1,411 bases of DNA from Escherichia coli (GTDB lineage: Bacteria; Pseudomonadota; Gammaproteobacteria; Enterobacterales; Enterobacteriaceae). The notes beneath the pieces were generated by a model, which had not been told where the DNA came from, ran no database searches, and saw nothing but the letters and a program-made list of their open reading frames with translations. A program made the translations under genes and the position numbers. Below are positions 978 to 1,411 of the stretch, one piece after another; within the stretch, counting starts at the first letter, position 1; each line of letters starts with the position of its first letter. The stretch is from the NCBI RefSeq assembly GCF_003334255.1, contig NZ_QOWU01000159.1; one strand, given 5' to 3'.

Positions 978-985
978 TCACCTCA
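978..985 (-). promoter_or_regulatory. SD-like TGAGGTGA overlapping the exonuclease stop codon, positioned to start the small ORF at ATG 973
   Basis: Coding-strand ACATATGAGGTGAAGCCATG; matches AGGAGGTGA consensus at 8 of 9 positions; 7-nt spacer to the ATG. Confidence 0.4.
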
Positions 986-1411
986 TATGTTCAGGAATGG
1001 TGTTGTGAAGCGCTGCCAGATTTCTGACACGACCTTTGCCTGGTAAATGGCGTCGCCCAGCGCGGTGTGAGCAATGGCCTCTTTTCCTGATCTGCCTGGC
1101 ATTTTCCATCCAGTTGATTCAGCCATGGCGATAAGCGGGCGCATACAGCGCTCGTTCCAGTAGCACCAGGGGATGCTTTTTTCTCCGGCTGTGCGTGTTA
1201 TGGCGGATTTCAGGATCGGGAAATCGAAGGATGCGCCCTTACACCATATGTTCAGTGAATTGCCCGGGCTTTCGTCATGCATATTGCGTGAAATGAACGC
1301 CAGAAATTCGGTCACTGCTGCCAGCTCTGTTCCATCTGCGTTGCGCAGGCAGGATCTGGCCTCCACGGATTGTCCGGCCCACCATACAGCGGTGGCTGCA
1401 TTGACGGTTCC
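983..1411 (-). CDS. DnaQ-like DEDDh 3'-5' exonuclease domain protein; 5' end (N-terminus) lies beyond the right window edge
   Basis: The minus-strand frame is open from 1411 to a TGA at 985..983 (142 codons). The track lists only the part from an internal GTG at 1366, but the 15 codons upstream of it (1367..1411) contain no stop. Exo II-like motif NIWCKGASFDFPIL (D at 1225..1223) and Exo III-like motif HTALGDAIYQAKVV (H at 1069..1067, D at 1054..1052; H-x4-D as in the DEDDh subfamily, resembling epsilon-subunit HGALLDAQILAEVY). The Exo I (DxE) motif would be upstream, outside the window. Family call is motif-based only. Confidence 0.7.
   Translation of the reverse strand, partial: GTVNAATAVWWAGQSVEARSCLRNADGTELAAVTEFLAFISRNMHDESPGNSLNIWCKGASFDFPILKSAITRTAGEKSIPWCYWNERCMRPLIAMAESTGWKMPGRSGKEAIAHTALGDAIYQAKVVSEIWQRFTTPFLNI

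Follow-up and report, generated by a model that had tools for sequence, protein, structure and literature searches.

A DexA-like exonuclease gene, most likely an EcD allele, from the early operon of a P2-like Escherichia coli prophage

Here we identify a DEDDh 3'-5' exonuclease of the DexA/Rv2179c-like clade, the gene of which occupies the early (Pe-type) operon position of a P2-like (Peduoviridae) prophage of Escherichia coli. The gene, termed exo below, is partly contained in the DNA analyzed, a stretch of 1,411 nucleotides (the window; NCBI RefSeq assembly GCF_003334255.1, contig NZ_QOWU01000159.1), and was completed from a closely related locus. In our assessment, it is probable that exo encodes a DexA/Rv2179c-like accessory nuclease of the P2-like early operon, that it is an allele of the published exonuclease EcD with a role against T-even phages, and that it owes its proximity to a dam gene to inherited gene order.

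Three genes are located on the minus strand of the window, namely exo, an ORF for a ParE-like protein and a dam gene (Table 1). The exo reading frame comprises 142 codons and is open from position 1411 to a stop codon at 983-985. Nine nucleotides separate this stop codon from the ATG of the ParE-like ORF (973-971), and the stop codon of the latter overlaps the ATG of dam by 4 nt (ATGA, 746-749), so that the ParE-like ORF is translationally coupled to dam. On the plus strand, antisense to dam and the ParE-like ORF, there are open frames at 66-734 (222 codons) and 607-1008 (133 codons); these had no PHROG match and are probably by-products of the opposite coding strand. A search of both strands of the window against Rfam gave nothing at E <= 1. 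By megablast, the whole window was found in 30 of 5426 complete E. coli genomes (~0.6%), every time in the chromosome, and it had no megablast match among 50,697 phage records. RefSeq names the three genes at the E. coli loci 'DNA adenine methylase', '3'-5' exonuclease' and 'ParE family toxin-like protein'. The best E. coli locus, L001, is 99.4% identical to the window and carries an exo gene of 193 codons, the product of which has the N-terminus MNHLMIDTETLG. Values of dN/dS for exo were 0.13-0.27 in comparison to alleles with 83-98% protein identity, and the gene is under purifying selection.

Table 1. Positions of genes, motifs and single residues in the window.
Feature	Position	Strand	Basis
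exo, C-terminal part (residues 52-193 of 193, with stop codon)	983-1411	-	Translation; PF16473; best PDB match
Ala82, at the position of DexA D90	1319-1321	-	phmmer and MAFFT alignments
Exo II motif KGASFDFPIL (catalytic Asp114 at 1223-1225)	1211-1240	-	Asp invariant by comparison to T4 DexA D119
Trp136, equivalent of DexA W152	1157-1159	-	Invariant alignment column
Exo III motif HTALGDAIYQ (His166 at 1067-1069, Asp171 at 1052-1054)	1040-1069	-	Invariant by comparison to DexA H186 and D191
ParE-like ORF, 75 codons	746-973	-	PF24732, E = 1.2e-17; PHROG 1525, E = 5.5e-27
Dam-family N6-adenine DNA methyltransferase, first ~249 codons of 326 aa	1-749	-	TIGR00571, E = 2.1e-66

An original prediction made from the partial ORF had proposed a stand-alone DEDDh exonuclease, and this is borne out by the PF16473 match, the alignment of the DEDDh residues and the Foldseek results described below. 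The Exo II and Exo III motifs that it named are present in the 142-codon translation, and its count of 52 residues between the Exo II Asp and the Exo III His agrees with the 52 positions from D114 to H166. The Exo I motif, expected upstream of the partial ORF, is D7-x-E9 (in MIDTET), just outside the window, and was read from the full-length gene in L001. The complete protein has the DEDDh motif order of Exo I D-x-E, Exo II D and Exo III H-x4-D. Based on an alignment with T6 DexA, residues D7, E9, D119, H186 and D191 of DexA correspond to D7, E9, D114, H166 and D171 of the exo protein, all of them invariant. The predicted similarity to a DEDD exonuclease profile was found for the full-length protein with Pfam PF16473 (Rv2179c-like; E = 2.7e-51, model positions 1-177 of 177). 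All 49 homologue clusters carry a precomputed PF16473 label, and PHROG 255, annotated 'exonuclease', matched at E = 9.4e-60. PADLOC-DB 2.0.0, which predates the paper on EcD, gave only a weak match to a generic Cas-associated DEDDh model (E = 2.8e-5). A literature search on PF16473 found no papers. The description of the enzyme as DnaQ-like and of the proofreading type had to be replaced by DexA/Rv2179c-like. The exo protein does resemble DnaQ (Pol III epsilon) and RNase T in its RNase H-like DEDDh fold and in how its catalytic motifs are ordered, but it is without a polymerase- or clamp-binding extension. The Pfam RNase_T model (PF00929) gave only E = 0.45 over residues 5-47, there is no NCBIfam model matching the exo protein, and the annotation of the prophage region shows no polymerase gene; on these grounds we rejected a DnaQ proofreading subunit.

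Among proteins of known structure, DexA of phage T4 is the best match of the exo protein both by sequence and by fold. A phmmer search of PDB sequences returned as the sole real match a 227-aa 'exodeoxyribonuclease' (8KEL/8KEN), which is T4 DexA, with E values of ~1e-11 to 1e-12 (best 2e-12). An AlphaFold2 model built from 22 homologues (pLDDT 86.8, pTM 0.85) has an RNase H-like alpha/beta fold, and DexA (8KEL/8KEN) was the top PDB entry retrieved with it by Foldseek (TM 0.75), followed by RNase T, DnaQ domains, Cap18, TREX-like proteins and Exo I, with a Foldseek probability of 1.00 for DexA, RNase T, DnaQ domains and Exo I. The catalytic residues of DexA and its W152 are conserved in the exo protein. 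The two proteins differ in that their identity is only about 25%, and the exo protein is 34 residues shorter, lacks the extra loops, helices and C-terminal tail of DexA and has Ala in place of D90. Moreover, exo belongs to a temperate P2-like phage, whereas DexA belongs to a virulent T-even phage.

The Pfam family is named for Mycobacterium Rv2179c (RNase AS), the exo protein matches its profile over the full length, and many database entries say '3'-5' exoribonuclease'. It is nonetheless highly improbable that the exo protein is a 3'-5' exoribonuclease of this kind, acting on RNA 3' ends. The phmmer search of the PDB that found DexA at 2e-12 did not find Rv2179c at E <= 1, and there is no pairwise phmmer similarity between the exo protein and the solved Rv2179c chain. 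Rv2179c is a mycobacterial exoribonuclease, whereas the tested member of the clade to which exo belongs acts on DNA; the assays of this member, EcD, used DNA (PMC12153337).

EcD (GenBank HAK9828821.1, 'HREX') was described as an E. coli homologue of DexA in the study that solved the DexA structure (Kang et al. 2025, Nucleic Acids Res, gkaf501; PMC12153337). EcD was reported not to digest unmodified dsDNA and to degrade 5hmC-modified T4 DNA as its sole substrate type, and plasmid-borne EcD protected E. coli (BL21) from T4 even when uninduced (PMC12153337). In the same work, W152 of DexA was reported as a 5hmC-recognition residue, and D90, a tetramer contact of DexA, was found to be replaced by Ala78 in EcD (PMC12153337).

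Two cloning primers, one of which deviates by 1 base, and a residue number make it most likely that the window contains an EcD allele. The gene part of primer EcD_F (ATGATTGACACCGAAAC) matches L001 at 17 of 17 positions at the codon for Met5 (ATGAACCATCTC-ATGATTGACACCGAAAC), and that of EcD_R (TCATATGTTTCAGGAATGGT) matches window positions 982-1001, across the stop codon, at 19 of 20 positions with one extra T. Both primers match at the correct ends and on the correct strands of exo. The extra T stands in the supplementary primer table (PMC12153337), which has GTTTCAGG where the window and L001 have GTTCAGG. Taken at face value, this T would put the final codons out of frame. It probably arose in typing or in text extraction, although a genuine difference between alleles is conceivable. 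D90 of DexA aligns with Ala82 of the exo protein by phmmer as well as by MAFFT; this residue becomes Ala78 when counted from Met5, the residue number given for EcD. Annotated 189-aa forms starting with MIDTET exist in the same 90% clusters as exo, and GTG is the first codon of some exo alleles. The DEDDh residues and the equivalent of W152 are conserved in the exo protein. The acidic D169 of DexA, which like W152 is a residue of 5hmC recognition, aligns with Ser150, adjacent to Glu149, in a gapped region in which the alignment is uncertain. Accession HAK9828821.1 is not among the listed members of the exo homologue clusters and was not found as text in the supplements of the paper (PMC12153337). 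It should be noted that the window holds residues 52-193 only, and allelic differences from EcD are possible. A further difference concerns origin: EcD was presented as a bacterial exonuclease in a paper from which the word 'prophage' is absent (PMC12153337), whereas exo is an early-operon gene of a P2-like prophage.

The genomic context can be read from L001, where exo lies in a complete P2-like prophage adjoining chpSB/ppa, with P2-family capsid, scaffold, terminase, portal, tail and baseplate genes. One strand of this prophage encodes integrase and an HTH repressor, the other a series of genes from cox to SSB. Between the int/C-cox switch and gpA, and on the same strand as cox and gpA, exo is preceded by Cox, DUF4761, DUF4754, small ORFs and a 76-aa ORF that overlaps the exo start by 1 nt. 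It is followed by the ParE-like ORF, dam, three small ORFs, DUF4406, more small ORFs and gpA, which encodes the replication endonuclease, and then by two small ORFs, a MarR-family regulator and SSB. The same order of the early region was observed in 31 IMG/VR loci and in phage 3LV2017. Genes around exo in the prophage operon are tightly spaced or overlapping. Scanning with consensus patterns of L001 19500-24400 (dam to the int/C switch inclusive) gave 5 promoter-like sites compared to 5.4 +/- 2.2 in shuffled sequence, which provides no indication of an internal promoter for exo, and there were no terminator-like sites on the coding strand. Both the spacing and the scan are consistent with co-transcription of exo with the ParE-like ORF and dam.

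The Dam protein scored above the curated cut-off of TIGR00571 and matched the PADLOC model 'orphan methyltransferase' at E = 1.1e-75. Beyond its methyltransferase domain and outside the window, it has a Cys-rich C-terminal tail, CDACGRHGGGYCPDCG (residues 292-318; L001 19769-19870, minus strand). This tail matches a segment of RecE/exodeoxyribonuclease VIII (NF007259 positions 526-552, E = 5.5e-4) as well as PHROG 20376 (positions 256-282), a family of long phage 'exonuclease' proteins with a DexA-like C-terminal domain. These matches suggest that Dam of this prophage shares its zinc-ribbon-like element with DexA-like exonucleases elsewhere. The ParE-like ORF is present in 6 of 6 E. coli-type loci and in 5 of about 24 other (Klebsiella-type) P2-like loci, and no antitoxin gene is annotated beside it.

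How often exo and dam are neighbors was examined in a profile-guided scan of IMG/VR, which yielded 80 exo loci, followed by tblastn with the prophage proteins. Thirty-one of the 80 loci are P2-like, with integrase upstream and gpA downstream in most of them; one contig (L022) ends just after exo, which leaves 30 informative P2-like loci. In 29 of these, dam comes immediately after exo. The sole exception is a Klebsiella-type P2-like contig, L030, in which the dam slot is occupied by a gene for a 373-aa PAPS-reductase-family protein with the PP-loop SGGKDS (5009-6130, plus strand; PHROG 424, E = 6.8e-83). Identities of the Klebsiella-type clade are 46-51% for exo, 46-52% for dam, ~33% for gpA and ~45% for int. 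In the 49 non-P2 loci (37-43% identity; contigs mostly ~17-61 kb, a few shorter), dam, gpA and a related integrase were absent within 6 kb. A dam-centered scan gave 12 loci, five of them on contigs already included in the exo-centered scan, and exo was present in most of the loci that reach upstream of dam. One locus (L092) has exo and dam without the ParE-like ORF. An E. coli-type P2-like locus (L093) has a dam gene that is 86% identical and no exo; upstream of dam it has small ORFs and a 184-aa D5-like/transcriptional-regulator-like ORF (3590-4923, plus strand; PHROG 323, E = 1.8e-28).

The closest exo protein of an isolated phage is only 47% identical and is encoded by Klebsiella phage 3LV2017 (Peduoviridae, NC_047817). 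This phage has int, C, small ORFs, the exonuclease, Dam and, at the position of gpA, an origin-nicking replication protein. It differs from the E. coli loci in that it is without the ParE-like ORF and in that the annotated start of its dam overlaps the end of the exonuclease gene.

In view of these results, several statements of the original prediction on the arrangement can be revisited. The phage rather than housekeeping context that it suspected turned out to be that of a P2-like prophage, with exo in the early operon between cox and gpA. The co-orientation with an orphan-type Dam is confirmed by the common strand and by the TIGR00571 and PADLOC matches, and probable co-transcription with dam is compatible with the gene spacing and with promoter- and terminator-like sites that do not exceed chance. 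By contrast, exo is not directly upstream of dam, given that the 75-codon ParE-like ORF intervenes. Recurrence of the adjacency, with integrase and in most cases gpA nearby, holds for P2-like loci (29 of 30 informative ones) but does not extend to the other relatives (0 of 49). The term two-gene module was too strong because the E. coli lineage has the ParE-like ORF in between and because L030 and L093 separate exo from dam.

The entire region from int to gpA is syntenic in P2-like phages, the adjacency of exo and dam is limited to these phages, and the two genes are separable. An inherited gene order thus fits better than an obligate two-gene module, and the adjacency by itself would not amount to evidence of a functional pair. 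We consider it improbable that exo and Dam, alone or together with the ParE-like protein, act as one functional unit, such as an anti-restriction or self/non-self pair in which Dam would mark the phage's own DNA and exo would remove differently modified DNA or nucleic acids of host defense. In support of such a unit, P2-like phages of the E. coli and Klebsiella types have kept the adjacency at ~47-51% protein identity, and in L030 the dam slot is filled by the PAPS-reductase-family gene, which may provide another DNA-modifying function. Published work in which phage Dam and the prophage exonuclease RecE each act on retron msDNA adds a thematic link only (bioRxiv 10.1101/2020.06.22.160242). Yet, with the whole int to gpA region syntenic, the adjacency requires no functional cause, dam is absent within 6 kb of exo in all 49 non-P2 relatives, and there are loci with either gene but not the other. 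Moreover, the published phenotype was obtained with EcD alone (PMC12153337). Equally doubtful is a more specific version, in which exo and Dam, possibly with the ParE-like protein, would form a modification-based discrimination unit of P2-like phages for inter-phage warfare. Here Dam would mark phage and host DNA, and exo would remove foreign-modified DNA, for example 5hmC-containing T-even DNA. If true, a lytic operon would encode a counterpart of restriction-modification that is based on an exonuclease.

The exo family is present in 1605 of 50,697 phage records. The homologue of T-even phages is dexA, and that of phage SKA5 is located after Ea22. Lambdoid phage mEp235 (L084 2778-4862) has a homologue of ~38% identity as the third gene of a block encoding a Rad52-family recombinase, SSB, the exonuclease and Abc2. 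It is unusual for a single-strand annealing protein to be partnered by a 3'-5' DEDDh enzyme. Four homologues from Klebsiella michiganensis/Raoultella (P0040, P0042, P0044 and P0046) share 33-36% identity with the exo protein and no longer have the catalytic residues: DLINVN replaces D-x-E-T-L-G, the Exo II Asp is absent, and Arg/Thr replace the Exo III His. Judged by these replacements they look like catalytically dead exonuclease homologues, and they retain the C-terminal helix DAVYQAEQVCEIWQRLT.

The recombination-module setting of the lambdoid relatives (~38% identity) would, by analogy, point to a role in DNA metabolism, and such a role during lytic growth is a serious rival to the explanation that we prefer. 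The exo protein may then be a phage replication or recombination nuclease that trims 3' ends of P2-type rolling-circle or recombination intermediates, with the anti-T4 effect as a by-product of over-expression. Its location within the early replication operon, after cox and before gpA, would suit this role, as would the Rad52-SSB-exo-Abc2 module of mEp235. In the prophage itself, however, no single-strand annealing recombinase is annotated beside exo and the SSB gene is ~7 kb away, and in L093, which is without exo, the gene proves dispensable in this lineage. In addition, EcD was reported inactive on unmodified dsDNA, which is the state of P2-like phage DNA (PMC12153337). Overall, we regard this explanation as unlikely, although it deserves more weight than any other alternative to an anti-T-even role.

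According to the explanation preferred here, that of an accessory nuclease directed against T-even phages, exo would be transcribed together with the ParE-like ORF and dam within one long early operon. By comparison to the family, D7, E9, D114 and D171 would hold two divalent metal ions, and, as in the superfamily, H166 would activate water as the general base for the removal of single nucleotides from the DNA 3' end. The enzyme would spare the unmodified DNA of its own phage and could destroy DNA of competing T-even phages. The P2 Tin protein is a precedent for the exclusion of T-even phages. Against this explanation, the anti-T4 role comes from a single paper and from plasmid expression in BL21 (PMC12153337). 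In P2, the C repressor silences the early operon in lysogens (PMC3936717). Given that exo lies in an operon repressed in lysogens and away from the known lysogenic-conversion sites of P2, its level in the lysogen is the main caveat.

In conclusion, the gene class represented by T4 DexA and EcD, and very probably this very gene, has already been described structurally and functionally, and the arrangement of exo and dam is already annotated in the isolated P2-like phage 3LV2017. The new element is context: what was published as the bacterial defense exonuclease EcD very probably corresponds to an early-operon gene of a P2-like prophage beside a ParE-like ORF and an orphan-type Dam. Its anti-T4 activity can thus be read as phage-phage competition, perhaps during lytic growth or through leaky expression, rather than as host-encoded immunity.
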